From a virus: DNA of 64,000 bases. Each line of letters opens with the position of its first letter. Position 1 is the stretch's first letter. The position numbers and the translations under genes were made by a program. Location: IMG/VR virus record IMGVR_UViG_3300044984_001443, positions 5,608-69,607 of that record; one strand, 5' to 3'. Under the pieces are notes generated by a model. That model worked only from the letters and a program-made list of their open reading frames with translations, did no database searches and was not told the origin of the DNA. This document shows, one piece after another, positions 36,164 to 62,461 of the stretch.

Positions 36164-36831
36164 CTTGAGCAAAGTGCGGTAGGCTACCATAGCTACCCAC
36201 TTGCTCAAACCCTGCTGCTGGCCGTCTCCTGGCCTGCTACAAAGCAATTTAGCGCCCGTTTTGCCCTGTGTTTACAGGTTACACGGTAAGGCGTCATTTA
36301 ATTTGTAAACATTCGTAAGGTCAGATGTTTACAACCTTGCTCAACAACCCTACAGTGTAGTGCCGATTTAGCATATAGGGTTTATTGCATTGCAACAAAG
36401 CATTAGGGGTTAGCTAAGTTTATTGCCACCAAAACATATTGCAAAATAAAAAGCCGGCATATATTACTAGCCTAACTTACTAAACATTGGTGTAAGTGCT
36501 TGTTTTTATTGGGCAGTTCACTAAACACAAATCGATCACTTTAACGTTAGCGTGACAGCATAAGCAAACGCTTATATAGGTATGCTTAAATTGTCGTCTT
36601 AGGAGTTTGTGCACTGCAACAATTGTAATGCTTTGGTTAATGAAACTCACTCTGACGCGGGATAGAATATTATATAAATATTTCTTGAGAATTGAGACGA
36701 TATGGGTGGTCGAAGGACGATTGTTTGAGCAACTGTTGCTGCGACGTTTGGTTGCAATGACAATTGTTTTGTGCCACAATTGGCTTACTGTTAATTAACA
36801 GTATCGTAAAACATAGGTTAAAGGAGAAGTT
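36164..36831. other. non-coding control region (candidate replication origin or genome-end region)
   Basis: ~670 nt without a convincing ORF; hairpin 36166-36208; inverted repeat TTGTAAACAT/ATGTTTACAA 36303-36334; AT-rich; GA/TC-free tract. Confidence 0.5.
36752..36780 (+). promoter_or_regulatory. sigma70-like promoter TTGCAA-17-CACAAT
   Basis: hexamers with 17-nt spacer; member of repeated promoter family. Confidence 0.55.
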
Positions 36832-37050
36832 ATGTTACCGAGTTTTAAATTTGGTCCGGTTGTATTGGTGATTATCGCAGCTATATCAATTGGATATTAT
36901 GCAGGACGTAATTCAATAAAACAGATTGATCGTATATGCCCTGAGCAGAAGGCGAAGTTGATAACGTCAAGTCATTCAAATGCTGGTACGATTTGTGTCT
37001 ATCAAGAACCTTGGAAGAACAAAGGTAAGATCAAGAGGATTGAACTATGA
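36832..37050 (+). CDS. small membrane-anchored protein
   Basis: AAGGAG RBS, N-terminal TM. Confidence 0.6.
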   Translation: MLPSFKFGPVVLVIIAAISIGYYAGRNSIKQIDRICPEQKAKLITSSHSNAGTICVYQEPWKNKGKIKRIEL

Positions 37051-38498
37051 TTTTCAAACGTAAGCCGCGTGACTATCAGCTTGAAGACTTTGAACGGTCA
37101 AAAGACCTGCGAAACTTCGCCCTTCTATTCGAAATGGGGTTAGGGAAATCCAAGGTAACAAATGACACTGCGTTGCACTTATACAGCAAGGGGAAGATCA
37201 ATGCTGTTGCGATCATTGCCCCGAAAGGTATTCATGCAAAATGGGCCAAGGAAGATTTTCCTAATGACTTCCCAGATGGATTGGAATACCGTGCCGCCGT
37301 TTGGCGTTCTGGTAATCAGAAGTCAATTGATGAATGTGAGCGATTATTCAACCCTGGTGAGCGACTTCGCATACTTTGTATGAACATTGAGGCGTTGAGT
37401 CAAGACAAAGGTCCTGCTGAAAAGTTCCTGATTCGCTTTCTTGACTCGACTGATTGCATGTTGGTTGTTGATGAGTCTGATACTATCAAGAATCCAGATG
37501 CCAAACGAACAAAACGCTTGCTCAAATTGGGTGACAAAGCATCTTACAAGCGGATATTGACAGGTACTCCGATCAATAACTCGGTTTTTGATCTGTATTC
37601 GCAAATGACCTTCCTTGACACTGACATCTTTGGTCAATCGTTTACGAGTTTCAAGCACACTTACGCAGAAGTTCTGCCTCCGACACATCCTACAATGATG
37701 GCAATCATGCGGAAAGGTGCGCGTTTTGCTCCAGTGCTGGTTGAAAAGGATGTTGACGGTAAGCCGAAGTGGAAGAATCTTGATAAGTTGAAAGAGGTGA
37801 TGAAACCGTATGTCGCAATACGGCTCAAGAAAGACCATTCAGATCTCCCTGACAAAGTATATCAGTCAATTTATTATGATCTTGAACGTCGGCAGCGCAG
37901 ATTATACGATGAATTAAAGCTCAAAGCGAAGATCGCACTTGAAGATGATACGGTGACTGTCCTGCATAAGATGACATTGATCATGCGTTTGCAGCAAGTT
38001 TTGTCAGGTTATCTTCCAGGTGATACGACTGATGATTTGATTCCATTGTTCAACAATCCAAAAGACAATCCGCGCATTGAAGCTCTATTGACCTTGCTTG
38101 AAACAGTGAGCGGTCAGGTTATCATTTGGTGTCGCTTTGTTGATGAAATCAAACAAATTGCCAAACTTCTTGGTGACGAATGTATCACCTACTTCGGTGA
38201 GACTACGAATCGTGAAGAACGCATTGAATTGTTCAAGACCGGAAAGGTTCGCTACATGGTTGCGAACACTGCGGTCGGCGGAGCAGGTTTGAACTTGTCA
38301 AACAGTGCGACGGCTGTCTACTACAGTAACGACTTCAGTTATCGCAACCGCGCTCAGTCGGAAGACCGACAACACCGCATCGGTCAAACTGAAACTGTGA
38401 CCTGTATTGATATCGTTGCTGATAATACTGTTGATGAGCATATCACCAAGATTCTTCGTGACAAGAAGGATATCAGTCATGAAATGATGACGTTATAA
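37047..38498 (+). CDS. SNF2-family (superfamily 2) helicase
   Basis: EMGLGKS, VVDES, LTGTP, GGAGLNL, QSEDRQHRIGQ. Confidence 0.92.
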   Translation: MIFKRKPRDYQLEDFERSKDLRNFALLFEMGLGKSKVTNDTALHLYSKGKINAVAIIAPKGIHAKWAKEDFPNDFPDGLEYRAAVWRSGNQKSIDECERLFNPGERLRILCMNIEALSQDKGPAEKFLIRFLDSTDCMLVVDESDTIKNPDAKRTKRLLKLGDKASYKRILTGTPINNSVFDLYSQMTFLDTDIFGQSFTSFKHTYAEVLPPTHPTMMAIMRKGARFAPVLVEKDVDGKPKWKNLDKLKEVMKPYVAIRLKKDHSDLPDKVYQSIYYDLERRQRRLYDELKLKAKIALEDDTVTVLHKMTLIMRLQQVLSGYLPGDTTDDLIPLFNNPKDNPRIEALLTLLETVSGQVIIWCRFVDEIKQIAKLLGDECITYFGETTNREERIELFKTGKVRYMVANTAVGGAGLNLSNSATAVYYSNDFSYRNRAQSEDRQHRIGQTETVTCIDIVADNTVDEHITKILRDKKDISHEMMTL

Positions 38499-38504
38499 CG
38501 CCGC

Positions 38505-38533
38505 TTGCATTGACCTGTAATAGTGGGTAAACT
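38505..38533 (+). promoter_or_regulatory. sigma70-like promoter TTGCAT-17-TAAACT
   Basis: hexamers with 17-nt spacer in intergenic gap. Confidence 0.6.
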
Positions 38534-38568
38534 TGCTGCACTTACTAAATTGTTTATAGGGTAACAAA

Positions 38569-38916
38569 GTGTCTAAAGTGTACTGCGTGACTGAACCGAT
38601 CACTTACCGAGATGGTAATCCAGTTCCGTTATTTGATATTACGCCAGCGATTGAATATGGTGAGATTGAGATTTTGACTCGTCATAATCAGTCGATGCAA
38701 TTCAGCGTTCCAATGATTAGAAGTTTGCGCGACAAGTTGAAGGATTTCAATGACAATGATTTCATTCTTCCTGTTGGTGACCCGATAACTATTGGAGCAG
38801 TCTGCGCGGTTGTAGCTGATATCAATGGTGGTTATTACAAGGTGCTCAAGTGGGATAAGAGAACTCGCAAGTACATGCCGATTGAAATTCAAGTGTGGGG
38901 TAGTCAACTTTCTTAA
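38569..38916 (+). CDS. conserved phage hypothetical protein
   Basis: DITPAIEYGEI, LKDFNDNDFILPVGDP, LKWDKR..KY.PI. Confidence 0.7.
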   Translation: MSKVYCVTEPITYRDGNPVPLFDITPAIEYGEIEILTRHNQSMQFSVPMIRSLRDKLKDFNDNDFILPVGDPITIGAVCAVVADINGGYYKVLKWDKRTRKYMPIEIQVWGSQLS

Positions 38917-38929
38917 TATAGGTGCTATA

Positions 38930-39996: not shown

Positions 39997-40007
39997 TTTC
40001 GAAGTAA
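39916..40007 (+). pseudogene. orphaned original 3' end of gene 38930-39439
   Basis: encodes AFVKERMSAGLELPVDF(fs)GASVVKTTVISK*, a duplicate of the upstream gene's C-terminus with a 1-nt deletion. Confidence 0.85.
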
Positions 40008-41068: not shown

Positions 41069-41097
41069 TTGCAGTGTTACCGGGCAGGGTGTAAAGT
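41069..41097 (+). promoter_or_regulatory. sigma70-like promoter TTGCAG-17-TAAAGT, -10 inside an inverted repeat
   Basis: hexamers; CGGGCAGG/CCTGCCCG arms 41081-41110. Confidence 0.55.
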
Positions 41098-41142
41098 AAT
41101 AGCCTGCCCGCTATAGGGGTCACATAGAAAATAAAGGCACGA

Positions 41143-42651
41143 GTGATGAGTCTTGCAGAACGCTTTTTCAATATCTACGGCGGTTTAGATCGGGCAAGAG
41201 GTAAGAATAAAACAACTGCAAAAGTTGGTAAGAATGGTAAGCGGGATTCAAGTAATCAAACCTTACGCGAACCTTACGATGTCAGGTGTTGGGATCGTCA
41301 TCTCAACGGTGAAGAAGGTCTCGGTGTTATTCCGATTACTGACAATGCGACCTGTAATTGGGGCGCAATTGACGTAGACATCTACCCGCTTGATCTGGTT
41401 GAACTTGAAGCTAAGATCAACGGTTTAGAACTCCCATTCGTTGTTCTTAAAACCAAATCAGGTGGGGCACATCTTACAGCATATTTCAAAGAGTTCCAAT
41501 CGTGTGCTGAAGTACGGGCAAAGATGGCCGAGGCCAGTTTTGCTTTAGGACTTGGAGAACGTGAGTTCTATCCAAAGCAGGTCAAGTTAGCGAACTCAAG
41601 TGACATTGGAAACTGGCTAAACATGCCATATTTTCAAGGCGCATTGACCGAACGCTATGCAATTATCAATGGTAAGCCCGCCACACCGGAACAGTTCCTT
41701 GACTACGTTGATTCAATCCGTTTAGATGCAGTAATTGACTTCGTTGTACCAGAGACAACTTCAGAGTTCTCAGACGGCCCGCCTTGCTTGCAAGCGATCA
41801 CAAGTTCAAAAGCGGGTGAAGGTGAGCGTAATACCGTCCTGTTCAATATCGGTGTCTACTGCCGAGCCAAATTTGAATCAAGTTGGGAAGACAAACTCAG
41901 CGAGTTCAATCATCAATTTGTAGCACCTCCATTAAACCATCGTGAAGTTACGGCGATTGTAAAGTCACTTGAGAAAAAGAATTATGCGTACACTTGTAAC
42001 AACGTTCCTCTATGCAATAACTGCAATCGAGAGACGTGTAAGGGTAGAGATTATGGAATTCACGCTTTTCAGCATATTGATGTTGGTATCGCATTAGACA
42101 GCATTACCAAGATGAACTCAGAGCCACCGATGTGGATTCTGTCAATTGAGGGTGTGCGTACTGAGGTAGAAACAGAAGATATATTGTCGCAAGAACGTTT
42201 CAAGATCGTTTGCGTAAACACCATAAACAAGATCCCAGGTAAGATGAAGGCCGAAGAATGGGATAAATTTATGCGGAACAAGTTGTCAACCATAGAGATT
42301 ATAGAAGTACCTAAAGAAACGCGCATGAGCGATCGTATTACAGATCACTTGACACGCTACTTTGCAACGACTCCGCCGGCAAGGTCTCCAACCGACATTA
42401 ATATTGGTCGTTGGGTTGACGAACCAGATGGTTACTATACTCGAGGTTCTGACTTTATGGACTACCTTAGAAGGCAGAACATTGAATTTGATGCTCGTAA
42501 AGTCTGGGTACTGATGATGGACTTAGGTGTAAAACCGATATATTATAGGAAAAATGAATGTTGGATTGTACCAAAAGAAGTGTATGACCCAAACGGCAAA
42601 GAAAAGAAGTTATCACTCCCACCAAAGGACATAAAGCATGAGGATTTCTGA
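41143..42651 (+). CDS. AEP-superfamily primase with PriCT-like domain
   Basis: WGAIDVD, KTKSGGAH, GNWLNMPY, GPPCL, GEGERN. Confidence 0.85.
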   Translation: MMSLAERFFNIYGGLDRARGKNKTTAKVGKNGKRDSSNQTLREPYDVRCWDRHLNGEEGLGVIPITDNATCNWGAIDVDIYPLDLVELEAKINGLELPFVVLKTKSGGAHLTAYFKEFQSCAEVRAKMAEASFALGLGEREFYPKQVKLANSSDIGNWLNMPYFQGALTERYAIINGKPATPEQFLDYVDSIRLDAVIDFVVPETTSEFSDGPPCLQAITSSKAGEGERNTVLFNIGVYCRAKFESSWEDKLSEFNHQFVAPPLNHREVTAIVKSLEKKNYAYTCNNVPLCNNCNRETCKGRDYGIHAFQHIDVGIALDSITKMNSEPPMWILSIEGVRTEVETEDILSQERFKIVCVNTINKIPGKMKAEEWDKFMRNKLSTIEIIEVPKETRMSDRITDHLTRYFATTPPARSPTDINIGRWVDEPDGYYTRGSDFMDYLRRQNIEFDARKVWVLMMDLGVKPIYYRKNECWIVPKEVYDPNGKEKKLSLPPKDIKHEDF

Positions 42652-44170: not shown

Positions 44171-44280
44171 GCGAAGCGATAGCGATGTTGAAAGCGGTTT
44201 ATAATCGTCTTATAGAGTTACAAAGGTATGTTCCGGCAGCAGAAGTTAAACGAATTATCGAAAGGTTAGAAAATGACTGA
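44167..44280 (+). CDS. small hypothetical protein (37 aa)
   Basis: manual translation MSEAIAMLKAVYNRLIELQRYVPAAEVKRIIERLEND; GGAG RBS, overlaps on both sides. Confidence 0.5.
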   Translation: MSEAIAMLKAVYNRLIELQRYVPAAEVKRIIERLEND

Positions 44281-45130
44281 AATGGAAGAATTGTTCGTTT
44301 ATTGGGTCAAAGAACGTGAAGCAATCCGTGTCAAGAAAGAAGCGGGTGAGCCAAAACCTTGGACTGATGACCCTATTTTCCAGACTTACAAGTTCACAAA
44401 TGTAAGGCGTGAAGATGATACGGTCAGCAAGTGGATCACTGAAAACTGGATTGAGCCGAACGACCCGCATCCGAACATGTGGTTTGCGATGATCGTTGCA
44501 CGTTTGTTCAATTGGCCTCCGACACTTGAAGAGATTTGTTTCCCGCAAATCACCTTTCCAGAACTTAAAGAAAAGTGGCGGCGCAATCTCAAAGGTCTGC
44601 GTGACATTGGTAAAGAGAAGATCTTCACAGGGGCATATCTTGTTTCAACCAACGGTGTGAAGATGGACAAGATTGATTACATTCTTGACCGCGTGTTGAC
44701 TCCGATATGGGAGAAGGGTCGTGCTCCTAAGATACAGTTGCTAAATGAAAATAAACCAGAATCACTCGAAGGATACTGGACACACTTGCGCCAATTCGAC
44801 GGTCTCGGTAGTTTCATGGCAGGGCAGGTGATTGCAGACTTGAAGTTTACTTCTGAACTCAAAGATGCACCAGACTGGTGGACTTGGGCACCCCTTGGAC
44901 CGGGTTCAATTCGTGGTTTGAATCGTTTTCACGGTCGCCCCGTTGATAAATCGTTGCGCCAAGACAAAGGGCTAGAAGAAATTCGTGAAGCACAGCGATT
45001 GTTGTACGACGAACTTGAATGGCATCTTCCGGCGCACAACATACAGAACTGCTTTTGCGAATTTGACAAATACCTTCGCGTCAAGAACGGCGAAGGTCGT
45101 CCCCGTTCACTTTACCCAGGAGTTAAGTAA
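44273..45130 (+). CDS. aGPT-Pplase1-family DNA base-hypermodification protein (HhH-glycosylase-like fold)
   Basis: EREAIR.KKEAGEPKPWTDDPI.QTYKFTNVRREDD, RLFNWP.TL, GLGSFMAGQVIADL, GPGSIRGLNR, QNCFCEFDKY. Confidence 0.85.
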   Translation: MTEMEELFVYWVKEREAIRVKKEAGEPKPWTDDPIFQTYKFTNVRREDDTVSKWITENWIEPNDPHPNMWFAMIVARLFNWPPTLEEICFPQITFPELKEKWRRNLKGLRDIGKEKIFTGAYLVSTNGVKMDKIDYILDRVLTPIWEKGRAPKIQLLNENKPESLEGYWTHLRQFDGLGSFMAGQVIADLKFTSELKDAPDWWTWAPLGPGSIRGLNRFHGRPVDKSLRQDKGLEEIREAQRLLYDELEWHLPAHNIQNCFCEFDKYLRVKNGEGRPRSLYPGVK

Positions 45131-45468: not shown

Positions 45469-46434
45469 ATGCTAGTTATCCGTGGTCAAAATGTAAACGA
45501 TATCTTGCCAGTCGGCATCATGCACTTGAAGAATGGAGAAAAACGTGACTCAAGAAACGGACCGGTCCTCGAAATCCCAACAACTGTTGCAGTGCATTAC
45601 GACTATCCCGATGAACGTGTCCTCTTCGAGCCTTTGCGAGACGCCAACCCCTTCTTTCATCTCTTCGAAAGTCTCTGGATGCTCGCTGGACGCAACGATG
45701 TGGGATTCCTTAATGAATACAACTCAAGAATGGCGCAGTACAGCGATGACGGGCAAGGATTCAATGCTGCCTACGGGCAAAGACTTCGTTCCGGATTTGG
45801 CTATGATCAACTTGATGAAGTCATTAAACGTCTCAGAAAAGATCCCGACGATAGACAGGTCGTACTTCAAATATGGGATACCGCTGACCTTACAAAAGAC
45901 ACTAAAGATAAAGCCTGTAACCTAGTTATCACCCCGCGCATCCGTAACGGCAAACTCGACTGGACAGTGTTCAATCGTAGCAATGATTATTTGCTCGGCA
46001 TGACCGGAGCTAATGTCGTTCACATGTCGATCATTCAAGAATATGTTGCTCGTATGATCGGTGTGCCAATGGGCAGCTACGAGCAGATCAGCAATTGTCT
46101 ACACGTTTATACAGAACTGACGCCGCATTGGGAGAAGATGAAAGACCTACCTTTGACCGTTGACTGCCCTTACAAATCTGCCCGCGTTACACCGTTCCCA
46201 TTGATAACCAACAAAGAAAGTTGGATGTCAGATCTGTACACTTGGATGGACAAGCTGTGGGGCGGACAGGTTTACGTTGATCCGTTCTTTAACTACGTTG
46301 CGAAGCCGATGGCTATCGCGCACCGGGCACACAAGGATGGGCGCAACGGGTTACAATATGTAAACGCTATACAGGCAACCGACTGGAGATTAGCTTGTGA
46401 ACAATGGCTTACTCGCCGTGAATCAAGTGTTTGA
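45469..46434 (+). CDS. thymidylate synthase-family enzyme, probably dUMP hydroxymethylase
   Basis: SRNGPV, RDANPFFHLFESLWMLAGRND, AYGQRLR, KDKACN (catalytic Cys), NRSND..LG..GANVVH (Asn at the dUMP-specificity position). Confidence 0.85.
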   Translation: MLVIRGQNVNDILPVGIMHLKNGEKRDSRNGPVLEIPTTVAVHYDYPDERVLFEPLRDANPFFHLFESLWMLAGRNDVGFLNEYNSRMAQYSDDGQGFNAAYGQRLRSGFGYDQLDEVIKRLRKDPDDRQVVLQIWDTADLTKDTKDKACNLVITPRIRNGKLDWTVFNRSNDYLLGMTGANVVHMSIIQEYVARMIGVPMGSYEQISNCLHVYTELTPHWEKMKDLPLTVDCPYKSARVTPFPLITNKESWMSDLYTWMDKLWGGQVYVDPFFNYVAKPMAIAHRAHKDGRNGLQYVNAIQATDWRLACEQWLTRRESSV

Positions 46435-46504: not shown

Positions 46505-47035
46505 ATGTCAGCAAATGATAAGCAAATCGGCGGCAACCACTATGATAAAAGTGGTGAGCAACATTGGGATCGTATGTTCCGCTTGTATGGACGAGGTTAT
46601 TTTGTCGGATGTTCGACAGGTTATATTGAACGTTACCATTTGAAGAACGGTAAGCAAGATCTTAAGAAAGCCATCCACTTCATTCAGAAGTTGATTGAAC
46701 TTGAGTATCCTGAAGAGAAGGAAAAAGGTTTAGATATAGCTTTGAAAGAACCTGCTAACTGGGATGAATTCTACGCAAAACAGAGTTCCGAACCGATTTC
46801 CGATATTCTTAAAGAATTGGATAGTATGGCGAGAGAAGTTGCAGGTATTCCCGACCATCTCAAAGAGTTCGTTCCTACCGACCGGCAGAAAGAAGTCGCT
46901 GCAAAGTTCGAAGATCTACGCGAAAAACACATGAATGCCATCAGCCCGATGATGCAAAGAATCTTGGAAGATAAAGAATGGGACGTTGACGCCGATGAAC
47001 CGTTACCCAACGGTTATGTAAACCAAGACAAATAG
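46505..47035 (+). CDS. DUF3310-like protein
   Basis: ANDKQIGGNHY...QHWD...YIERY..KNG.QDLKKA.HFI.KLIE. Confidence 0.75.
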   Translation: MSANDKQIGGNHYDKSGEQHWDRMFRLYGRGYFVGCSTGYIERYHLKNGKQDLKKAIHFIQKLIELEYPEEKEKGLDIALKEPANWDEFYAKQSSEPISDILKELDSMAREVAGIPDHLKEFVPTDRQKEVAAKFEDLREKHMNAISPMMQRILEDKEWDVDADEPLPNGYVNQDK

Positions 47036-47047
47036 TTGTGGTAATAT
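47019..47047 (+). promoter_or_regulatory. extended -10 promoter TG-G-TAATAT followed by a hairpin
   Basis: TGTGGTAATAT; GTTGTGCCG/CGGCACAAC hairpin at 47051-47077; GA 15 nt upstream of -10. Confidence 0.5.
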
Positions 47048-47098
47048 GGGGTTGTGCCGTTTGTATAGCGGCACAACAACTAATCTTATAGGTGATAT

Positions 47099-47651: not shown

Positions 47652-49663
47652 CCGACAAACTCTTCCTCGACCTTGAAGTTTATCCAAACTACTTCCTTGC
47701 CAAACTCATGAACGACGAAGGTCGTTTTCGTGAGTTTGAAATGTATGAAGGGCAGGGATTAGATGTTGTCAAACTTCGCGCACTGCTCAATTCTTACACT
47801 GTTGTCACCTTCAACGGAAATAATTACGATTGGCCGATTCTGTCACTTGCTTTGAACGGTGCTGATAACGAAGCATTGAAAGAAGCTTCCGACGCCATCA
47901 TTGTCAATGACATGAAACCTTGGAACTTCTACAAGCATTTCCGTTGCCAAGCGTTGAGCTATGACCACATTGACATCAAGGAAGTTGCACCCGGCGTCAT
48001 GGTCAGTTTGAAGTTGTATGCAGGGCGACTCCATGCACCAAAGATGCAAGACCTACCTTACGACCCTGATTCATTGTTGACACGTGAACAGATGCAAGCG
48101 GTCAACCTGTATTGTGGTAACGACTTGCATGTTACGAAGCAGTTGTTTGATGCAATCAAAGGGCGTGTGACGTTGCGGGAAACTATGTCAGCAGAATACC
48201 GTACTGACCTCCGCAGCAAGTCTGACGCCCAAGTGGCCGAGGCAGTAATCAAAACGGAACTATTCCGGTTGACCAATAAGAAACTTGTCAAACCTTCAGT
48301 AAAGGAAAAAGAATTCTTTTACAAGGTTCCGGAGTACATGAGTTTTCACACTGACCAGTTGAACAATGTGTTTGAAATGGTCAAACGCAGCCCTTTCACT
48401 GCCAAGACTAACGGTCAGATTGAGATGACCGAGGAACTTGCCAATACGCTGATTCACATCAATGGTACGACTTACAAGTTAGGCATCGGCGGTTTGCACA
48501 GTCAGGAAAGTGAGATCAGCTATCAAGCTGACGATGAGCACATGATCGTTGACCGTGACGTTACTTCGTATTACCCTAGCATCATTCTTAACCAAGGGTT
48601 GTATCCTGAAACCCTCGGTCCGCATCTGTTGGAAGTGTTCAAAGTTCTTGTTGACAGGCGCGTTGCTGCCAAGCGTAAGAACCGTGAACTTAAGAAGTTA
48701 GGTGTGAAGGGTCACACGTACAGAAGTTATTTAGAAAAGTCAAACAAAGATGACGCGTTTTCTTGTACAGAATATAAGGAACGCGTCTCACTCGAACAAG
48801 ACCTTGACTTCGACCGTTCTGTCACTGTTATGGATTCATTGCGAATTACTATTAACGGGGCATTCGGTAAGTTAGGTTCTGTTTACTCTGCATTGTATGC
48901 ACCTGACTTGATGATTCAAGTTACTGTTACCGGGCAATTGACATTGTTGATGTTGATTGAGCGTTTTGAAATGGCGGGCATTAAAGTCATCAGTGCAAAT
49001 ACTGACGGTATTGTGACCCGTTACCCGCGTTCACGGCATGAGGAAATCGCTGCACTTGTTAAGCAGTTTGAACAGGAGACGCAATTTGAATTTGAAGACA
49101 CGCACTATTCGGGACTATATTCGCGCGATGTCAATAACTACATCGCTATCAAGCCAGACGGCGAGGTTAAGACCAAAGGTACGTTCAAAGCAGGAGATCT
49201 TCAGAAGAATACTCAGAACGATATCTGCAACGAAGCGTTGATTGCTTACCTGAAAAACGGTACACCGATTGAAGAAACAATCCGCGCTTGCAAAGACATA
49301 CGAAAGTTTGTTACGGTGCGAACTGTGAAGGGTGGTGGTCAATTCAATCCTAAAGAAGAGCACCCTGTTGTCGCAGCCGTTCGCGCAGTTACAAGCGGCA
49401 AAGAACCACCTGTTCAGAAGTACCTCGGTAAAGTTGTCCGTTGGTACTACGGAACTGAAGACACCGGAACAATCAACTACGTCAAGTCAGGTAACAAAGT
49501 CCCACGAACAGATGGATGTGTGCCTTTGATGGATTTACCGCTTGACTTTCCTAGCAATGTAGACTATAATTTTTACATTAACGAGGTTAATGATTTGTTG
49601 ATGGATATAGGTTTAGTCGCCCGACCACCTGTAGTTAAGAAGACAAGGAGTAAGAAAGTATGA
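47648..49663 (+). CDS. family B-like DNA polymerase with 3'-5' exonuclease
   Basis: ExoI DLEVYPNYF, ExoII TFNGNNYD, ExoIII YCGND, motif A DVTSYYP, motif B RITINGAFGK, motif C NTDG. Confidence 0.92.
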   Translation: MTDKLFLDLEVYPNYFLAKLMNDEGRFREFEMYEGQGLDVVKLRALLNSYTVVTFNGNNYDWPILSLALNGADNEALKEASDAIIVNDMKPWNFYKHFRCQALSYDHIDIKEVAPGVMVSLKLYAGRLHAPKMQDLPYDPDSLLTREQMQAVNLYCGNDLHVTKQLFDAIKGRVTLRETMSAEYRTDLRSKSDAQVAEAVIKTELFRLTNKKLVKPSVKEKEFFYKVPEYMSFHTDQLNNVFEMVKRSPFTAKTNGQIEMTEELANTLIHINGTTYKLGIGGLHSQESEISYQADDEHMIVDRDVTSYYPSIILNQGLYPETLGPHLLEVFKVLVDRRVAAKRKNRELKKLGVKGHTYRSYLEKSNKDDAFSCTEYKERVSLEQDLDFDRSVTVMDSLRITINGAFGKLGSVYSALYAPDLMIQVTVTGQLTLLMLIERFEMAGIKVISANTDGIVTRYPRSRHEEIAALVKQFEQETQFEFEDTHYSGLYSRDVNNYIAIKPDGEVKTKGTFKAGDLQKNTQNDICNEALIAYLKNGTPIEETIRACKDIRKFVTVRTVKGGGQFNPKEEHPVVAAVRAVTSGKEPPVQKYLGKVVRWYYGTEDTGTINYVKSGNKVPRTDGCVPLMDLPLDFPSNVDYNFYINEVNDLLMDIGLVARPPVVKKTRSKKV

Positions 49664-51048
49664 ACATCGCATTAGTCTATCATGAAAGTGGTATTCCCGG
49701 AGGTCACTGTGAATACAGTGACGTTCTGTTGCAAGGGTTGAGAGAAAACGGTGCGAATGTTCGTTTCTTTTACATTAGCCCTAATGTGCAAAATAATGGG
49801 GCGCGTGCTGCCCAAAAGAGCGCGTCTCTGAGCGCTACAGCAGGCGTAGACCAAAAGGGCAATAGGTATACCTATGGTAAAAATGTCGAGTGCTTTTACC
49901 ATAGCGAGACAGGGTTTGTAAAAGAGAAAGACTTGTACGGTAACGCATTTTTGGCAAAACAACTGCGTTCTAAATTGAATCAGTTTGATGTGATCATTTG
50001 GCAAGACCTTGGTGGTTTTAAGAATCCTCATAATGAAAAGAATAAGGACTGGTTGAAACTTGTTCAGCGCAGACCGGGGCAGAAACAGATTGCAATGTTC
50101 CACGACCACGGTGCATTTTTGAGATACCCTTGGTTTGACAAGATTCAAGATCAGTTTGACTTCTTGGTAACGGTACATCCTGCGAGTTACAACATGGGTG
50201 CGAACTTTGATATCCCGCGTTGCATGATCTTGAATCCTCAGTTCTTACCTGATGAGGTGGTTTCTAATTGGCGCAATAGAGACAAGATGACAACGATGTC
50301 CATCGGTGCTTGGAAGGGTTCCAAGAAAATGCACGAAGTTGTTATGGCCGTCCCTTGGATGAATCGTGATATCAAAATAGATATGTGTGGCGATGGTACA
50401 GAGCGCCGGTATTTGACTGCAACTGATAAGTGTAAACCTACCTATATTCGTAACAAACAGACCGATCCTAATTTTACAAAAGAAATGTCTCTTGAAGACG
50501 ATCGTTTTTGGAACCATGCACTGAATCACCCTGGATTCAAATGGCACGGCCCGGTGGATGCGGTAACAAGGGACAACCTGTACGACAACTGTTTCATGTT
50601 CGTTGACCCTGCATGGTATTCTGTAAACGCTAAGATCGATGCTCACTTCTCAAGGGTGTTGGTTGAAGCTATGAAGAACGGAATCGTTCCTTTTGCAAGG
50701 GACTTGGGTTTGGGTTATGGTAACGGTACTGGTAGCATGTTTGTTTCAGGAGAGCATTATGTTAATATCCCTTGGAACGCTACGCCAAAACAGTTCGCTG
50801 ACATTGTCAATAGGTTTATGGAAACCATCAATGAAGGTGAGTACGAACGAATTGTTTCTAACAATCTGAAACTAGTCGGTCAAACAGACTATCGATTGAT
50901 TGGTAAGCAATTTATTGAGGCCATTGAGGGTACTGAAACTCCGGGCTATTATGGAAAATGGGAGATCGGTAAAACTTCTGCAAAGTTTAAAGAAGCTTCT
51001 GATAAACAGTGGTATGGCGAGTCCAAAGGTTTTTGTTTTGAAAGGTGA
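49660..51048 (+). CDS. GT-B glycosyltransferase (putative DNA-modifying)
   Basis: MNIALVY..G.PGG, FHDH, SIGAWKGSKK, C-terminal FVDPA...FSRVLVEAMKNGIVP GT-B signature; coupled to polymerase. Confidence 0.7.
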   Translation: MNIALVYHESGIPGGHCEYSDVLLQGLRENGANVRFFYISPNVQNNGARAAQKSASLSATAGVDQKGNRYTYGKNVECFYHSETGFVKEKDLYGNAFLAKQLRSKLNQFDVIIWQDLGGFKNPHNEKNKDWLKLVQRRPGQKQIAMFHDHGAFLRYPWFDKIQDQFDFLVTVHPASYNMGANFDIPRCMILNPQFLPDEVVSNWRNRDKMTTMSIGAWKGSKKMHEVVMAVPWMNRDIKIDMCGDGTERRYLTATDKCKPTYIRNKQTDPNFTKEMSLEDDRFWNHALNHPGFKWHGPVDAVTRDNLYDNCFMFVDPAWYSVNAKIDAHFSRVLVEAMKNGIVPFARDLGLGYGNGTGSMFVSGEHYVNIPWNATPKQFADIVNRFMETINEGEYERIVSNNLKLVGQTDYRLIGKQFIEAIEGTETPGYYGKWEIGKTSAKFKEASDKQWYGESKGFCFER

Positions 51049-51051
51049 GAC

Positions 51052-52029
51052 ATGTACAACAAAACAGCGATGGTTGACTTCGACGACACGTTATCGTTCA
51101 CAACGAACAGAGACTTTGAAAATGCAAGGTGTGACTACGACGTTGTTGCCAAACTTCATCAGTTGAAAGCACTAGGTTGGACAATTGTTATACAGACGGC
51201 AAGGGGTTATCTTTCTTGCAACGGTGATCGCGCTGCTGCTGATAAGAAGTACCGTGGTCAAATAGAATCATGGTTGAAACAACATGGTGTTCCTTACGAT
51301 GAGCTCACGTTTGAAAAACGCCTTGCCCAACTTTACATTGATGACAAAGCAATGACCCCTGAATCTTTTAAAGATACGGTTTTCACCGAAGAAAAAGGGT
51401 TGTCAGGGGCATATGTAATACGAATTGGTAATCGTATTCATAAGACCTCACCAACTGTAAAGAAAGAAGCCGCGTGGTATGACAAAGCAGGTGGGTTCTA
51501 TGTACCTGATAATCGCATCTTGTGTGGCGAAACCTTGTCAATGGATTTCATTCCGACAAACTCTGGTTACAAGTGGTATCCGATACTAGATGTGTTAGAT
51601 ACGATGTCAATGACAGAAGTCGATTGTAAAGATTGGTCGCATTACATCGATCGTTTGAAAGACCACGCCTCGTTAGCGGGTCTAGACTGCTCAAAAATTG
51701 AGCAACTCGGTATGAAATTTGAAACTAGAGCGAACGAACATCGGAGTTTTTGCCACGGTGACTTCTCTATTGACAATATTATCTGGTTTAACGAACTACC
51801 TTATCTGATTGATCCAATTGATATGAGCGATTCATATTCTTCGTGGGTGCTTGACTACAGTAAACTGATTCAATCTGCTGAACGTGCAGGGGTTGTTATC
51901 AAGACTGAACCACTGTTATCGCAGGATTTCTTAGGTTTCCTTGTGATGAGTCATTGGTTACGCTTGATCAAATATGTTTCAGGTGATCTGAAAGAACGCG
52001 CCATTTTGAAAGTGAAGGTATATGTTTAA
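51052..52029 (+). CDS. fusion of HAD phosphatase (capsule-biosynthesis EcbF/BcbF-like) and APH/choline-kinase-like kinase
   Basis: N-terminal DFDDT, QTARG, WLKQHGVPYDEL.FEK, YIDDKA; C-terminal CHGDFSIDNII..YLIDP. Confidence 0.75.
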   Translation: MYNKTAMVDFDDTLSFTTNRDFENARCDYDVVAKLHQLKALGWTIVIQTARGYLSCNGDRAAADKKYRGQIESWLKQHGVPYDELTFEKRLAQLYIDDKAMTPESFKDTVFTEEKGLSGAYVIRIGNRIHKTSPTVKKEAAWYDKAGGFYVPDNRILCGETLSMDFIPTNSGYKWYPILDVLDTMSMTEVDCKDWSHYIDRLKDHASLAGLDCSKIEQLGMKFETRANEHRSFCHGDFSIDNIIWFNELPYLIDPIDMSDSYSSWVLDYSKLIQSAERAGVVIKTEPLLSQDFLGFLVMSHWLRLIKYVSGDLKERAILKVKVYV

Positions 52030-52456
52030 GAACGCTAGAGCGCTAGGATTGAAAATTGGATTCACCTGCTCAACTTTTGATCTTCTTCACGCAGGTCATA
52101 TTGCAATGCTTGAAGAGGCCAAAGAACAATGCGAATTCTTGATTGTAGGTCTATTGTCTGACCCTACTATCGACAGACCTGATACGAAGAACAAACCTGT
52201 TCAGTCGTTGTTTGAAAGGTGGTTGCAGTTGCAAAGTGTGCGATACGTCGATATGATTGTACCGTTTTCAAATGAAAAGGACATTGTCGACATGTTGTTG
52301 ATAATTAGACCGGACGTTAGGATAGTGGGTGAAGAGTATCGCGGGACAAACTTCACAGGGCACGATCTTCCGATAGAATTGTATTTTAACAAACGCGAAC
52401 ATAGCTTCAGTTCATCCGAACTCAGATGTCGCGTTGTAAATGGAGAAAAGAAATGA
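52022..52456 (+). CDS. tagD: glycerol-3-phosphate cytidylyltransferase-like (HxGH nucleotidyltransferase)
   Basis: FTCSTFDLLHAGH, LIVGL..DPTIDRP..KNKPVQSL.ER, R.HSFSSSELR. Confidence 0.85.
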   Translation: MFKNARALGLKIGFTCSTFDLLHAGHIAMLEEAKEQCEFLIVGLLSDPTIDRPDTKNKPVQSLFERWLQLQSVRYVDMIVPFSNEKDIVDMLLIIRPDVRIVGEEYRGTNFTGHDLPIELYFNKREHSFSSSELRCRVVNGEKK

Positions 52457-54075: not shown

Positions 54076-54311
54076 TGCCATTTAACTTTTCAGGTATGAC
54101 GAAGTTGTCAGGTGATGCAGAAAAGATGAGTCTTTCTTGTTTGAAACTTGTTAAAGATGAGTTCACTCGTAAAGACTTCATTGAAGCGGGTAATCTTAAA
54201 CCGAGCACTGCAACAAAGTATCTTCATCATTTGATAGGCGCAGGTAAGATTAAAGAAACGTCTGCTTACAAGACGCCAAGGACGTATATTAAGGTTGCGG
54301 CAGACGGCTAA
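54072..54311 (+). CDS. small winged-helix-like protein
   Basis: KDEFTRKDF...NLKPSTATKYLHHLIGAGKI......PRTYIKV. Confidence 0.6.
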   Translation: MMPFNFSGMTKLSGDAEKMSLSCLKLVKDEFTRKDFIEAGNLKPSTATKYLHHLIGAGKIKETSAYKTPRTYIKVAADG

Positions 54312-54324
54312 CGTGTAGCACAAT
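54295..54324 (+). promoter_or_regulatory. sigma70-like promoter TTGCGG-18-CACAAT
   Basis: hexamers, interrupted inverted repeat, GA/TC-free downstream. Confidence 0.5.
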
Positions 54325-54366
54325 ACACCTGCCGCACTTTTACGGCTTACATATAGGGTGTATAGC

Positions 54367-56637: not shown

Positions 56638-56665
56638 TTGCTAATGATTTTAAATGCTGTAAACT
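56638..56665 (+). promoter_or_regulatory. sigma70-like promoter TTGCTA-16-TAAACT
   Basis: hexamers; family member. Confidence 0.55.
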
Positions 56666-56799
56666 TGTAACTGCGCTGCTTAGTTATTAGAGCAATGCCG
56701 CCTTCTTCGGTTCGTATGCTTGGGGCGTTAAATGAAGAAACGGACGTATCTCAACCCAAGACCTGTCCAATAGGAAGGTCGAACATAAGGAGTTTCGAA

Positions 56800-57285: not shown

Positions 57286-57288
57286 ATC

Positions 57289-57749: not shown

Positions 57750-57750
57750 C

Positions 57751-57795
57751 TTGTTAATGAACTTACGGCATGGCACTATTTGCTTGCCGTAAGTT
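57751..57795 (+). promoter_or_regulatory. sigma70-like promoter TTGTTA-17-CACTAT, -10 in loop of an 11-bp inverted repeat
   Basis: AACTTACGGCA/TGCCGTAAGTT arms. Confidence 0.65.
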
Positions 57796-57821
57796 TACGG
57801 CCAACCATATAGGAGCTAGAA

Positions 57822-58086: not shown

Positions 58087-59193
58087 ATGAGTCATGAATT
58101 AGATTTTAGCACCGGCGAAGCTGCGATCGCATATACAGGAACGAATGTTCCTTGGCACGGCCTGGGATTTAACCTTGAAAAAGGTGCGTCTATTGAGGAC
58201 TGGTCAAAAGCTGCACGAATGGAATGGGAGATTTTCCGTGCTCCTGTGAAGTTTGATGTGGTTAATGACATTGCGAATGTCGACGAACTGACAAAGACTC
58301 TTATCTATCCTGACAAGCATGTCTTATATCGCAGTGATACGAACAGCCCGTTGTCAGTAGTTAGTCCGTCGTACAACATTGTGCAACCTCAGGAAGTGCT
58401 TGAGTTTTACCGTGACCTCGTCGGTACGGCGGATATGCAACTTGAGACAGCAGGTGTTCTGTTTGGCGGGCGGCGGTTCTGGGCCTTGGCTAATACCGGA
58501 AGAATGGTTGACCTTGCCGGTACGAAGGTCGACGGAAAGACAATACCCGACACAGTCAAAGGTTATCTCTTGTTGACTACGTCATGCGATGGTACGTTGG
58601 CAACGACGGCGCAATTCACCAGCGTTCGCGTTGTCTGTAATAATACCTTGTCTGTTGCAACGAAGGATAACAATACGCGCATTCGTGTTCCTCACAATCG
58701 GGTCTGGAAACCTTCGGAAGTCAAAGAACAACTTGGCTTCGTTGACGAAGGTTGGAATAAGTTCTCGCAGCAATTGAAGTTGCTTTCGCAAGCAACTGCG
58801 CCGCGTGATCGTGCCGTAGAGTATTTAGTGACTCTATTTGGTGATCTTGATGTTGTTCAACGTCCGAAGCCAGCGGGTAATCGGGAAGGTGAGAATGACG
58901 CATTCTTGAAGGCGAGTCAAGATTGGTGGGATGAAACCATTGCCTCTCAATCACCTGCGGTGACACAGAAATGTGCCAACATCTGGTCGTTGTTTTCCGG
59001 AGAAGGTATGGGTAGCGATTATACGAGCAGCGATGGAACTTGGTTCGGTTTGATGAACGCTATCACCGAAACAATGGATTACCACACCTCGCACCGTACT
59101 ACTGACAGTCGCTTGAACAATTCCTGGTATGGTGCAGGAAACGCGCTGAAGACCAAGGCGTTTGAACTTGCACTTGACTACGCCACGGTTTAA
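58087..59193 (+). CDS. DUF932 family phage/plasmid protein
   Basis: PWHGLG, LYRSDT..PL.VVS..Y.IVQP.EVLEFY, LETAGVL.GGRRFWALA, SCDGTLAT, RVVCNNTL, GTWFGL.NAITE. Confidence 0.85.
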   Translation: MSHELDFSTGEAAIAYTGTNVPWHGLGFNLEKGASIEDWSKAARMEWEIFRAPVKFDVVNDIANVDELTKTLIYPDKHVLYRSDTNSPLSVVSPSYNIVQPQEVLEFYRDLVGTADMQLETAGVLFGGRRFWALANTGRMVDLAGTKVDGKTIPDTVKGYLLLTTSCDGTLATTAQFTSVRVVCNNTLSVATKDNNTRIRVPHNRVWKPSEVKEQLGFVDEGWNKFSQQLKLLSQATAPRDRAVEYLVTLFGDLDVVQRPKPAGNREGENDAFLKASQDWWDETIASQSPAVTQKCANIWSLFSGEGMGSDYTSSDGTWFGLMNAITETMDYHTSHRTTDSRLNNSWYGAGNALKTKAFELALDYATV

Positions 59194-59228
59194 ATGACGC
59201 TGCCGCATGGCATAATACCCATGCGGCA
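59188..59228 (+). promoter_or_regulatory. promoter with -10 CATAAT in loop of a 10-bp inverted repeat
   Basis: TGCCGCATGG-CATAATAC-CCATGCGGCA; weak -35. Confidence 0.55.
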
Positions 59229-59256
59229 TTTACCGCTAACTGAATAGGGGTACGAA

Positions 59257-59888: not shown

Positions 59889-59901
59889 GAAAGGAAAGAA
59901 C

Positions 59902-60220: not shown

Positions 60221-60235
60221 GAGCGAAAATAGTTG

Positions 60236-60263
60236 TTGCTTTTGACGGTGGTCGTAGTATAAT
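60236..60263 (+). promoter_or_regulatory. sigma70-like promoter TTGCTT-16-TATAAT
   Basis: perfect -10; predicted start coincides with 5' end of a long stem. Confidence 0.65.
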
Positions 60264-60271
60264 TCTTGGTA

Positions 60272-60434
60272 GTGGGATAGGTTGTATAAGTTCTGAGTTG
60301 TTGCTTAGATATTCCGGGTATCTAAGCTGAGTTGGGGAAGTGCCACCACATCCGTGACCAACGATATGCGAGGCGAGAGCTTCGAGTGTTGAGGTAGGTG
60401 GGTAGCAACTCAGAACTTATGCAACTTATCCCAC
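60272..60434 (+). ncRNA. putative structured ncRNA with 31-bp closing stem
   Basis: 60272-60302 pairs with 60404-60434 with three G-U wobbles; internal hairpins GCTTAGATA/TATCTAAGC and CGAGGC-GAGA-GCTTCG. Confidence 0.65.
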
Positions 60435-60480
60435 CCCTTATCTTTTAAACATTTTGCCGGAATGGCAATAGGAGAATCAA

Positions 60481-60987: not shown

Positions 60988-61025
60988 TTGAACTCCCTTG
61001 TAGCGTTCTCACTAAACGCTGCTTT

Positions 61026-61061
61026 GCCCGCCCAGTCTTCGGATTCGGCGGGCTTTTTCTT
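61026..61061 (+). terminator. intrinsic terminator
   Basis: GCCCGCC...TTCG...GGCGGGC followed by TTTTTCTT. Confidence 0.8.
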
Positions 61062-61171
61062 GGGCGTTATACGACGCGTTTTAAGGCGTTAGAGCACAGC
61101 AAGGTATGCCGTACTATATGCAAGGTAACTCTGATGCGCTGTAGGCGGTCGTATATGGGTTAAATAGTGGC

Positions 61172-61200
61172 TTGCTAAAGAATTAAACCTTGGCTACCAT
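61172..61200 (+). promoter_or_regulatory. sigma70-like promoter TTGCTA-17-TACCAT
   Basis: hexamers; family member. Confidence 0.6.
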
Positions 61201-61242
61201 GCAATTGCCGTTATGTAACGGTTTATCTTATAGGGGCTAGAA

Positions 61243-61320
61243 ATGAAACACTTTGAACAGCATCAATTCTACTGGTTTGTCGCACTTCCTTGTGATCTTC
61301 CGCGTTGCTATCTTATCTAA
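61243..61320 (+). CDS. 25-aa peptide
   Basis: manual translation MKHFEQHQFYWFVALPCDLPRCYLI; first ORF after promoter, TAGGGG RBS. Confidence 0.45.
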   Translation: MKHFEQHQFYWFVALPCDLPRCYLI

Positions 61321-61330
61321 GGAGAATGAA

Positions 61331-61363
61331 ATGAGCGATTACGAAATGGTTGCGATTCTCTAA
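61331..61363 (+). pseudogene. orphaned original 5' end (MSDYEMVAIL*) of gene 62041-62232
   Basis: strong TAAGGAG RBS; EMVAIL repeated in the downstream gene's N-terminus. Confidence 0.75.
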
Positions 61364-61409
61364 CACTTGTGGTACAATTTACAATGTACCATACTTAATG
61401 GAGAGTATC

Positions 61410-62054
61410 ATGGAATGGAGGTCTTTGGAAGAGTTTCCCAGTTATCAATTTTCAGACACAGGTCTTGTTAAGAAAGGCGACAAGTATGTGAACGTACATT
61501 TCTGGGGAAGATACCCTGCGGTAAGTTTATCAAATGGTTTTATGAGAAAGAGATTCAGAATCCATCGTGTTGTCGCATTGCTGTTTATTGGACCTTGTCC
61601 AGATGGGCAAATGGTTAGACATCTAGATGATGATCCTGAGAACAATAATGTTTCCAATCTTGCTTATGGAACCAGAGAAGATAACATTGCAGATGCCATT
61701 CGTAACGAAAGATTTAAGAAAGGTGACGAACATCATTCTAGAATAAATCCTGAATGTATGGCGAGCGGTGATAGAAATGGTGCAAGAACTCACCCTGAAA
61801 GTTTATCTAGAGGAGATAAGCATTGGACAAAACTCGACCCTGAAAAGTTGGCAAAAGGTAATAAACACGGTTCTAAAACTCATCCAGAAAGAGTGGCGAG
61901 GGGTGAACGGTGTGGCGCATCAAAGTTGACACAAGAGGCGGTTGATGAAATACGAGCTACTGAAAATTACTATGGTTGTGTGAATGCGTTGGCTAAGAAG
62001 TTCAACGTGAATCGGCAAACTATTACAAAGGTCAGAAAACATGAAACATGGTGA
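61410..62054 (+). mobile_element. free-standing NUMOD4-HNH homing endonuclease with C-terminal 15-aa repeats
   Basis: MEWRSL..FP.YQFSD.G (NUMOD4), IHRVVA..FIGP.P, VRHLDDDPENNNVSNL.YGT.EDN, repeats (H/D/N)PE...(R/K/S)G, C-terminal HTH. Confidence 0.9.
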
Positions 62055-62232
62055 TCAGTTTGAAATGGTAGCAATCTTAATGGCGCGTGACGGTATGTCT
62101 CGTGAAGAGGTCATGGAACAAATCAACGGGTTCAAGGAAGAGATCTTGATCAACGGTTGTTACGATGTTGAGGAAGACTTTATGTTAGAGTTCGGACTTG
62201 AACCTGATTACTTGGTTGATATTTTGTTTTAA
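62041..62232 (+). CDS. conserved small phage protein (HNH target gene, recoded N-terminus)
   Basis: LMARDGMSREE...FGLEPDYL.D pattern. Confidence 0.7.
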   Translation: MKHGDQFEMVAILMARDGMSREEVMEQINGFKEEILINGCYDVEEDFMLEFGLEPDYLVDILF

Positions 62233-62243
62233 GGAGAAATGAA

Positions 62244-62387
62244 ATGTCTAACCTTTCAGGTAAAAAGTGGTTCTATTCGATGGGTCAAAGGGATGCTTCC
62301 GTCAATAAGCGCATGTTGAATCGTAAGCAAAGTTCTTGGCCCGCGTGGGCTAGAAGTGCTTATGTCAATGGTTTTCACGGGCTTTAA
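62244..62387 (+). CDS. 47-aa basic protein
   Basis: manual translation MSNLSGKKWFYSMGQRDASVNKRMLNRKQSSWPAWARSAYVNGFHGL; TAAGGAG RBS. Confidence 0.55.
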   Translation: MSNLSGKKWFYSMGQRDASVNKRMLNRKQSSWPAWARSAYVNGFHGL

Positions 62388-62394
62388 CCTGCGC

Positions 62395-62439
62395 TTGTTA
62401 CCGACGTTGCGGCATTGCATAATTTGCTTGCCGCAATGT
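62395..62439 (+). promoter_or_regulatory. sigma70-like promoter TTGTTA-17-CATAAT, -10 in loop of an inverted repeat
   Basis: ACGTTGCGGCA/TGCCGCAATGT arms; near-copy of the 57751 promoter. Confidence 0.65.
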
Positions 62440-62461
62440 TGCGGCTTATAGGAGAAACGAA

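Follow-up and report, generated by a model that had tools for sequence, protein, structure and literature searches.

Hypermodified bases in phage DNA are seen as a defence against restriction. By what means DNA protected in this manner stays readable for the host polymerase is, to our knowledge, largely unexplored. Here we analysed a 64,000-nt window of an uncultured phage (the whole stretch of DNA studied, corresponding to genome positions 5608-69607 of a 69,607-bp single contig, IMG/VR record IMGVR_UViG_3300044984_001443), and describe in it a family of predicted promoters in which the dinucleotides GA and TC are strongly depleted, apart from one GA at a nearly fixed distance upstream of the -10 hexamer. 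All coordinates are those of the window unless marked "genome".

Thymine hypermodification in specific contexts has been described before, and so have phage promoter families of sigma-70 type. Promoters sensitive to Dam (GATC) methylation, such as those of the IS10 transposase and of phage Mu mom, illustrate how activity can be coupled to the state of modification or replication through one modifiable site that has a fixed place in the promoter. They differ from the elements described here in the modified base (N6-methyladenine, against a putative bulky thymine adduct), in the use of a host enzyme and a 4-bp site, and in their unpurged surroundings. In SPO1, both TF1 and the RNA polymerase in its phage-modified form prefer DNA that contains hydroxymethyluracil (hmU), and thymine replacement affects protein recognition of the promoter there too; every T is replaced in that phage, and neither a context-specific subset nor a modification-free window is known.

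The closest described systems are phages with a 5-hydroxymethyldeoxyuridine (5-hmdU) DNA kinase, namely M6, ViI, phiW-14 and Acinetobacter phage SH-Ab 15599, which share with our phage the enzyme family and the pairing of this kinase with a thymidylate-synthase homologue. As far as the accessible text of the reports goes, dinucleotide-specific thymine hypermodification was inferred there from restriction resistance, and the modified subset of T is set by the 3' neighbour, as would be the case here; the published contexts are TG and/or TC (PMC6449724; PMC13458397), whereas the context proposed here is TC alone, and TG is abundant inside our promoters. YuA is another 5-hmdU-kinase phage with a conserved promoter family, and the accessible description states that its motif was inactive in a plasmid promoter trap and that phage factors were suggested to be needed (PMC10914365). 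With regard to layout, the PeSLs of T4-like phages are also short, repeated cassettes of an early-type promoter and a stem-loop among small variable genes (PMC4122927). The likeness noted is one of layout. PeSLs are described as composite terminator/promoter motifs that mediate recombination and that occur where indels border in hyperplastic regions; here the stem-loop comes after the promoter, and the available part of the PeSL description mentions no dinucleotide purge (PMC4122927). Neither a purged modification context in promoters nor a single retained site was reported in the full-text literature that could be searched, a body of text from which subscription-only papers and bioRxiv supplements are absent.

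Our promoter set contains 12 elements, of which 11 lie in the window (the ten proposed in an earlier note on this DNA, and the element at 41069) and one lies upstream of it at genome 3772. Positions within promoters are counted from the first base of the -10 hexamer unless start-site numbering is stated. The elements of the window are as follows, and the ten positioned GAs and ten -10 hexamers are all located where the earlier note placed them.

36752..36831, + strand: promoter 1; TTGCAA at 36752, GA at 36759, CACAAT at 36775, palindromic hairpin, ATAGG, start codon at 36832; GA/TC-free 36760-36804
38505..38568, + strand: promoter 2; TTGCAT at 38505, GA at 38512, TAAACT at 38528, GTG start at 38569 (Pam3 gp32-like gene); GA/TC-free 38513-38572
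41069..41145, + strand: promoter 3; TTGCAG at 41069, TAAAGT at 41092, no positioned GA, start of the primase gene at 41146; GA/TC-free 41065-41120 (a 55-position gap, with the nearest GA at -28 and a strong inverted repeat around the -10)
47027..47098, + strand: promoter 4; GA at 47027, TGg-TAATAT extended -10 at 47042, start codon at 47099 (54-aa zinc-ribbon-like open reading frame, ORF); GA/TC-free 47028-47084; 9-bp 5' hairpin (-14.1 kcal/mol, z=-4.0)
54295..54366, + strand: promoter 5; TTGCGG at 54295, GA at 54303, CACAAT at 54319, start codon at 54367; GA/TC-free 54304-54369
56638..56694, + strand: promoter 6; TTGCTA at 56638, GA at 56646, TAAACT at 56660, start codon at 56695; GA/TC-free 56647-56690
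57751..57821, + strand: promoter 7; TTGTTA at 57751, GA at 57759, CACTAT at 57774, start codon at 57822; GA/TC-free 57760-57813; inverted repeat across the -10, and 5' hairpin
59189..59256, + strand: promoter 8; TTTAAA at 59189, GA at 59196, TGg-CATAAT at 59211, start codon at 59257; GA/TC-free 59197-59242
60236..60480, + strand: promoter 9, atypical; TTGCTT at 60236, GA at 60244, perfect TATAAT at 60258
61172..61242, + strand: promoter 10; TTGCTA at 61172, GA at 61180, TACCAT at 61195, 5' hairpin, start codon at 61243 (25-aa ORF, ahead of an HNH endonuclease gene); GA/TC-free 61181-61226
62395..62461, + strand: promoter 11; TTGTTA at 62395, GA at 62403, CATAAT at 62418, start codon at 62462; GA/TC-free 62404-62452; 13-bp inverted repeat across the -10, and 5' hairpin

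Depletion of GA and TC is real and far exceeds what chance would give. In 100 first-order Markov simulations of the whole genome, 10.3 GA/TC-free gaps of at least 40 positions were expected and 34 are present. The excess grows with gap length, to 20 versus 1.67 for gaps of at least 50 positions (simulation maximum 7) and 14 versus 0.30 for gaps of at least 60, and the longest gap (152 positions) is about twice the simulation maximum of 77. The effect is specific to one class. When the gap threshold was set for each of the ten strand-symmetric dinucleotide classes to give about one gap per genome, GA/TC was the outlier with 19 long gaps (1.07 expected), followed by AA/TT with 8 and GC with 6, and the remaining classes had 0-4. 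The promoters of the earlier note had been chosen partly by the GA/TC feature itself, a bias from which these genome-wide scans are free.

The 11 promoter regions, each beginning 12 nt ahead of the -10 and ending 13 nt short of the start codon, together contain 7 GA/TC, where their own base composition predicts 62.5 (z=-8.9), and none of 2000 mononucleotide shuffles was as low; the second-lowest class was AG/CT, with z=-3.0. Moreover, letters of the 12 aligned promoters were permuted inside alignment columns, which keeps any position-specific consensus. From -13 to +28 the count was 4 against 36.2 expected, with a minimum of 20 in 5000 shuffles, and hence a shared motif does not explain the depletion. 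Between -45 and -17, the count was 17 against 36.0 (as low in 1 of 5000). Markov, mononucleotide-shuffle and column-shuffle controls therefore all bear out the depletion claimed in the earlier note. The free stretches that it quoted exist as gaps of 59 (38513-38572), 65 (54304-54369), 53 (57760-57813) and 48 positions (62404-62452), and a free run of 43-65 positions follows the positioned GA in nine of its ten promoters, the exception being 60258.

A TTG is located at -22 to -24 in 10 of the 12 promoters, with -35 hexamers mostly of TTGC or TTGT types and a spacer of 16-18 nt to the -10. TTGACA, which itself contains GA, is found in none. All 12 -10 hexamers have A at the second and T at the sixth position (CACAAT, TAAACT, TAAAGT, TAATAT, CACTAT, CATAAT, TATAAT and TACCAT), and in several promoters TGn lies directly upstream. 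We infer that the 12 elements, those of the window and the one upstream of it, are sigma-70-type promoters followed by 5' leaders. Between -27 and -1, the whole 12-promoter set contains a single GA/TC besides the lone GA (TC at -6 of promoter 60258). The next GA/TC upstream is at -28 to -47, and the next downstream is at about +28 to +48 or is missing before the Shine-Dalgarno (SD) sequence or start codon, with the exceptions of 60258 and the genome-3772 promoter (TC at +9). If the start site is placed about 12 nt downstream of the first -10 base, the empty zone extends from about -45 to +30, a size roughly matching the textbook footprint of RNA polymerase on a promoter.

Leaders of 7 of the 11 window promoters have a clean 5'-proximal hairpin of 4-9 bp, and in 5 of the 11 a strong inverted repeat (-17 to -25 kcal/mol) encloses the -10. 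These repeats, of 8-13 bp, are at 41070-41120, 54295-54345, 57755-57800, 59198-59240 and 62400-62445. One arm lies in the spacer and the other just downstream of the -10, and the downstream arm can also pair with a third arm to form the leader hairpin; arm sequences vary between promoters while complementarity is kept. The earlier note also pointed to TATAGG ahead of the ribosome-binding site. ATAGG indeed precedes the start codon in most cases, but ATAGG(A/G)G is also found at SD distance from internal start codons without promoters, and it therefore reads as an SD variant rather than as part of the promoter.

Two other readings of these motifs were rejected. TGAC as a shifted -35 would shrink the spacer to 10-12 nt. 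Against a phage single-subunit RNA polymerase reading TATAGG speak the lack of RNA-polymerase family matches in our scans (Pfam outside about 30 structural-region ORFs, and PHROGs) and the occurrence of TATAGG at internal starts. A promoter model built with MAFFT and nhmmer was dropped, since the alignment was poor and hits were weak (best E=0.05).

The lone GA is present at -14 to -16 in 11 of the 12 promoters and is always GA, never TC. The interval from TTG to the -10 is variable save for this GA, and the base after it is mostly A or C. Of the 24 GA-edged gaps of at least 40 positions on the gene strand, 11 have a -10-like hexamer at +14 to +16, and the same count in relatives gives 3/7, 2/2, 4/9, 5/7, 6/9 and 6/8; the background at all GA sites is 6-8%, and the opposite strand gives 0/33 in total. 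The primase promoter (41092) and its orthologues have no lone GA; as the earlier note had stated for 41069, this promoter is GA/TC-free without the positioned site. Fixed orientation and spacing suggest that something reads the lone GA.

Relatives were reached through proteins only (SNF2 helicase, DUF932 and small-ORF proteins, 70-88% amino-acid identity), and they share the architecture although their sequences differ. Long gaps are most prominent for the GA/TC class in L002 (5 versus 1.2 expected), L005 (5 versus 1.05), L006 (6 versus 1.05), L010 (7 versus 1.03) and L011 (6 versus 1.12); L004 is weaker (3 versus 1.4), and the distant loci L012 and L013 (36-40% identity) have no GA/TC gap signal. 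Orthologues of promoter 1 in L002, L005 and L006 keep the GA 16 nt before the -10, and promoter 5 has an orthologue in L010. The promoter 2 spacer has diverged in L002, L003, L004, L007 and L008 with no GA/TC gained, and orthologues of promoter 3 in L002, L004, L005 and L006 are GA/TC-free and also lack the positioned GA.

Depletion extends to other DNA of this genome. A 153-aa ORF behind the genome-3772 promoter (genome 3818-4279, outside the window) has a GA/TC density of 0.035, compared with 0.088 by codon resampling from genome-wide usage, i.e. the synonymous-site expectation (z=-5.85). It is the sole strongly depleted gene among the 83 tested (others -2.5 to +6.9), and its orthologues have densities of 0.035-0.048. 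Depletion at synonymous sites implies that GA/TC is selected against at the DNA level across the whole gene. Non-coding DNA contributes as well:

36228..36518: two GA/TC-free runs (66 and 152 positions) in non-coding DNA, which take in a repeated element of about 230 nt (described below)

Genes around the promoters indicate which modification may be involved:

44273..45130, + strand: 5-hmdU DNA kinase gene (Pfam HMUDK_hel PF18723, E=1.2e-42, 146.7 bits against a cut-off of 25)
45469..46434, + strand: thymidylate-synthase homologue (PF00303, 80.4 bits; phrog_5131, E=5.6e-108)
46505..47035, + strand: nucleotide kinase-like gene (phrog_236, phrog_5839)
49660..52456, + strand: three genes 3' of the polymerase gene, encoding a weakly glycosyltransferase-like protein of 462 aa, a HAD-phosphatase-like/kinase-like protein of 325 aa and a cytidylyl/adenylyl-transferase of 144 aa

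The nearest cultured homologues of the kinase are 32-40% identical. The thymidylate-synthase homologue is a candidate dUMP hydroxymethylase, and a dUTPase/dCTP-deaminase-like gene is also present according to Pfam and PHROGs. Kinase and thymidylate-synthase homologue occur in every relative covering that region. These genes mark a phage of the thymidine-hypermodification kind, in which the kinase is a candidate source of sequence-context specificity. Judging from their predicted domains, the three genes at 49660-52456 may build the appended group, although the nucleotidyltransferase domain alone passes a curated cut-off (TIGR00125, 57.8 versus 27.7).

A promoter-independent signal comes from short palindromes. 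Phages under restriction pressure avoid them, and sites protected by modification need not be avoided. Among 6-bp palindromes, the 16 that contain TC/GA have a median observed/expected ratio of 0.90 and the 48 without TC/GA one of 0.36 (Mann-Whitney p=1.3e-5); nine of the latter have zero copies where 3-15 were expected. Other dinucleotide classes separate the palindromes less well. The effect stays with GC content as a covariate (t=4.25), and the medians with and without TC/GA within GC classes are 0.96 versus 0.46 and 0.88 versus 0.30. In the pooled relatives (91 kb) the ratios are 0.88 versus 0.48 (p=0.006).

The same test on other phages gave different answers. CA/TG is singled out in YuA (0.77 versus 0.13, p=0.0013), where GA/TC-containing sites are more avoided; both CA/TG and GA/TC are spared in PaMx11 and CA/TG in RHph_TM26; and no GA/TC effect was seen in CAjan and T7. 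Our palindrome result agrees with the published restriction-based inferences of TG and/or TC, and tests of this kind may serve more generally to deduce the modification context of a phage from its sequence. For the TC/GA context in this phage it provides indirect support. A deazaguanine modification in GA context, as in CAjan, was rejected: queuosine-pathway or DpdA-type genes had no match in the Pfam (66 ORFs) and PHROGs (85 window ORFs of at least 60 aa) scans, and CAjan itself shows neither the gap nor the palindrome signal.

We consider it rather probable that T in 5'-TC-3' is hypermodified in this phage, and that TC/GA has been purged from promoters read by the host RNA polymerase. According to this model, T would be replaced by 5-hmdU, and a subset would be hypermodified after replication through the 5-hmdU DNA kinase pathway. 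This subset would most likely be T followed by C, whichever strand carries it, so that both TC and GA mark it in the + strand sequence. An infecting genome would already be fully modified, and the host RNA polymerase would have to read it. In the introduction of a related study, bulky major-groove groups are stated to block bacterial RNA polymerase at promoters, while 5-hydroxymethyluracil (5-hmU) is tolerated or stimulatory (PMC11550810). Selection would then have cleared the zone bound by the polymerase, about -45 to +30 of the likely start, of TC/GA, leaving no bulky major-groove adduct there. Early and middle promoters and the initially transcribed DNA would be cleared of TC on both strands, and one GA, 14-16 nt upstream of the -10, would be kept as an invariant promoter element.

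The earlier note had placed a bulky modification in a TC (GA) context and had proposed its exclusion from the region where host polymerase binds and melts DNA. Kinase pathway and palindrome sparing lend indirect support to the first part, the putative modification at TC. For the second part, the free zone of these predicted promoters has about the size of the polymerase footprint, which speaks indirectly for exclusion. If the model is true, the phage has a genome-encoded answer to the problem of readability, in which modification sites are kept out of the polymerase footprint. Two signatures that need nothing but sequence, dinucleotide-free promoters and spared palindromes, would then predict the modification context of uncultured phages.

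Several results weigh against this account. The extra TC that the earlier note had seen in the 60236 promoter is real: promoter 9 (60258) carries TC at -6 and +6 and GA at +18, and TC would therefore seem to be tolerated there. A generic sigma-70 scan (at least 9/12 matches) listed only 2 of the 11 window elements; it was also unspecific, with 38 hits versus 24 expected and 20 versus 23. Metatranscriptome contigs (X15, X19 and X22), together with X24, which is labelled RNA-Seq and is probably DNA, reach a depth of 2-7, too sparse for any start to be visible, and one contig (57698-57848) crosses promoter 7, which makes DNA carry-over or read-through possible. Palindromes of 4 bp show no TC/GA effect (GATC 0.90 and TCGA 0.73, versus a median of 0.85 for the others). 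Non-coding DNA elsewhere, for example at 39997-40223 and in the iteron region (genome 3250-3650), has normal or high GA/TC, and the purge is therefore not general to non-coding DNA.

Comparison with other kinase-bearing phages adds to these points. GA/TC-free promoter gaps are absent from YuA and RHph_TM26, and the signal in PaMx11 is weak, which rules out generality across such phages; the CA/TG-free gaps of YuA and the gaps of PaMx11 sit in low-complexity repeats. Unlike our promoters, the YuA motif is TC-rich, and the palindromes of that phage point to TG. The YuA promoter repeats are at 7722-7749, 10500-10527, 22639-22666, 29058-29085 and 31098-31125 of NC_010116. A further difference from the described 5-hmdU-kinase phages is that aGPT-Pplase had no match in Pfam (66 ORFs, outside about 30 structural-region ORFs), PHROGs (85 window ORFs of at least 60 aa) or NCBIfam (eight ORFs). 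Together with the genes at 49660-52456, this suggests an undescribed type of thymine adduct, possibly based on a sugar or polyol phosphate.

Avoidance alone does not account for the retention of one GA. In start-site numbering, the lone GA places a template-strand T at about -26, and by simple helical geometry this T may point away from the side of the helix where the -35 and -10 are contacted, and be tolerated there. A tentative addition to the purge model, which it would extend and not replace, is that the lone GA is a modification-dependent mark, with the hypermodified T opposite its A read by the host polymerase or by a phage factor. A promoter would then have one level of activity on mature modified DNA and another on new DNA containing 5-hmU only. 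GA is the sole invariant in an otherwise variable interval between TTG and the -10, its orientation and its spacing on the gene strand recur far above background, and the invariant dinucleotide belongs to precisely the class that is purged elsewhere. However, a two-base invariant could be a plain sequence contact, as is the TG of extended -10 promoters; an invariant dinucleotide would fall into the purged class by chance in about 1 of 8 cases; the primase promoter and its orthologues manage without GA; and no candidate reader protein was identified. It is a rather doubtful idea that the early regulatory DNA of this phage group is written in a reduced alphabet lacking the target of the phages' own thymine hypermodification, with one GA kept per promoter as an epigenetic switch. 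Such a switch, if true, would tell mature (modified) from freshly replicated (5-hmU only) DNA and would time the promoter family to the state of the genome. The lone site is in any case a concrete candidate for modification-dependent promoter control.

GA/TC might also be avoided for a DNA- or RNA-level cause unrelated to thymidine hypermodification, such as a TC-specific nuclease, deaminase or ADP-ribosyltransferase acting on the melted promoter, a GA/TC-binding protein whose binding there would be harmful, or cleavage signals in leader RNA. Depletion alone is silent on what disfavours GA/TC, the free zone extends into the transcribed leader up to the ribosome-binding site, and TC-preferring toxins that act on DNA are known in bacteria. 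Nevertheless, GA and TC are both missing on one strand, and the free zone reaches 30-45 nt upstream of the -10 into DNA that the promoter does not transcribe, which argues against a purely RNA-level cause. An unrelated cause would also leave unexplained why restriction-type palindromes with TC/GA are spared, and why depletion co-occurs with the 5-hmdU kinase in every relative covering that region. We regard it as unlikely. That the promoters are copies of one mobile cassette whose ancestor lacked GA/TC by chance is very improbable: a repeated family with a shared layout beside small variable genes does recall the PeSLs as described in the accessible text (PMC4122927), but mean pairwise ungapped identity of the 12 promoters is only 37% from -13 to +28, none of the 5000 column shuffles was as low as the observed count, orthologues have diverged without gaining GA/TC, and unrelated DNA is free or poor of GA/TC too, namely the primase promoter, the non-coding gap of 152 positions and, at its synonymous sites, an entire ORF.

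With regard to gene layout, nearly all genes are on the + strand, and the window is divided as follows:

1-36163: terminase, structural and lysis genes
36832-54311: replication and nucleotide-metabolism genes
54367-63368: numerous small ORFs

G+C content of the genome is 46%, and the public runs that carry it are lake-water metagenomes. The family-B DNA polymerase shares about 43% identity with its counterparts in Seuratvirus coliphages and Pseudomonas phage PAJD-1. Megablast of 24 kb against 50,697 phage records gave zero matches, and over the window and the first 5.7 kb of the genome there were no Rfam matches and no tRNAs were found.

Promoter 9 looks the strongest of the family by its TATAAT. 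Its 220-nt leader (60264-60480) has normal GA/TC and no ORF before 60481, and could be a non-coding RNA; exact-match contigs from RNA libraries span 60438-60614. Four HNH endonuclease genes are present (39436-39996 and 61350-62054; genome 908-1378 and 4833-5333). Promoter 10 is followed by the 25-aa ORF, then a tiny ORF and then the HNH gene at 61350-62054, as though this gene had been inserted into a small one. The sequence GTGGTACAAT occurs four times, at 53345 and 61369 and at genome 5425 (+) and 1575 (-). Two copies lie just 5' of HNH endonuclease genes and one lies 5' of the late (terminase/structural) block. It resembles a second promoter type, with an extended -10, and is not GA/TC-free.

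A non-coding element of about 230 nt occurs twice, at 36290-36560 and at genome 2780-3060, flanking the structural-gene block. It is GA/TC-free for as many as 152 positions, has a CATATAGGGT core and a GCCAGC...GCTGGC hairpin, is conserved in L002, L005 and L006, and has no match in Rfam. The 153-aa ORF, which lies 1.3-1.8 kb upstream of the window, has N-terminal ATKP-type repeats and a strong terminator behind it; a protein-atlas look-up gave 0.83-0.84 to small AbiEi-type helix-turn-helix regulators, below a meaningful level. Genome 3250-3650 is iteron-like, with direct repeats of about 35 nt, and contrasts with the promoters in being very rich in GA/TC and GATC; an origin or a binding site for phage proteins may be located here. 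The 7-mer CGCCAGC is repeated seven times at genome 4440-4495, within a GA/TC-free non-coding stretch (genome 4422-4679), and in one relative (L015:1790-1915) tandem runs of CCAG type are likewise located in a GA/TC-free non-coding stretch.

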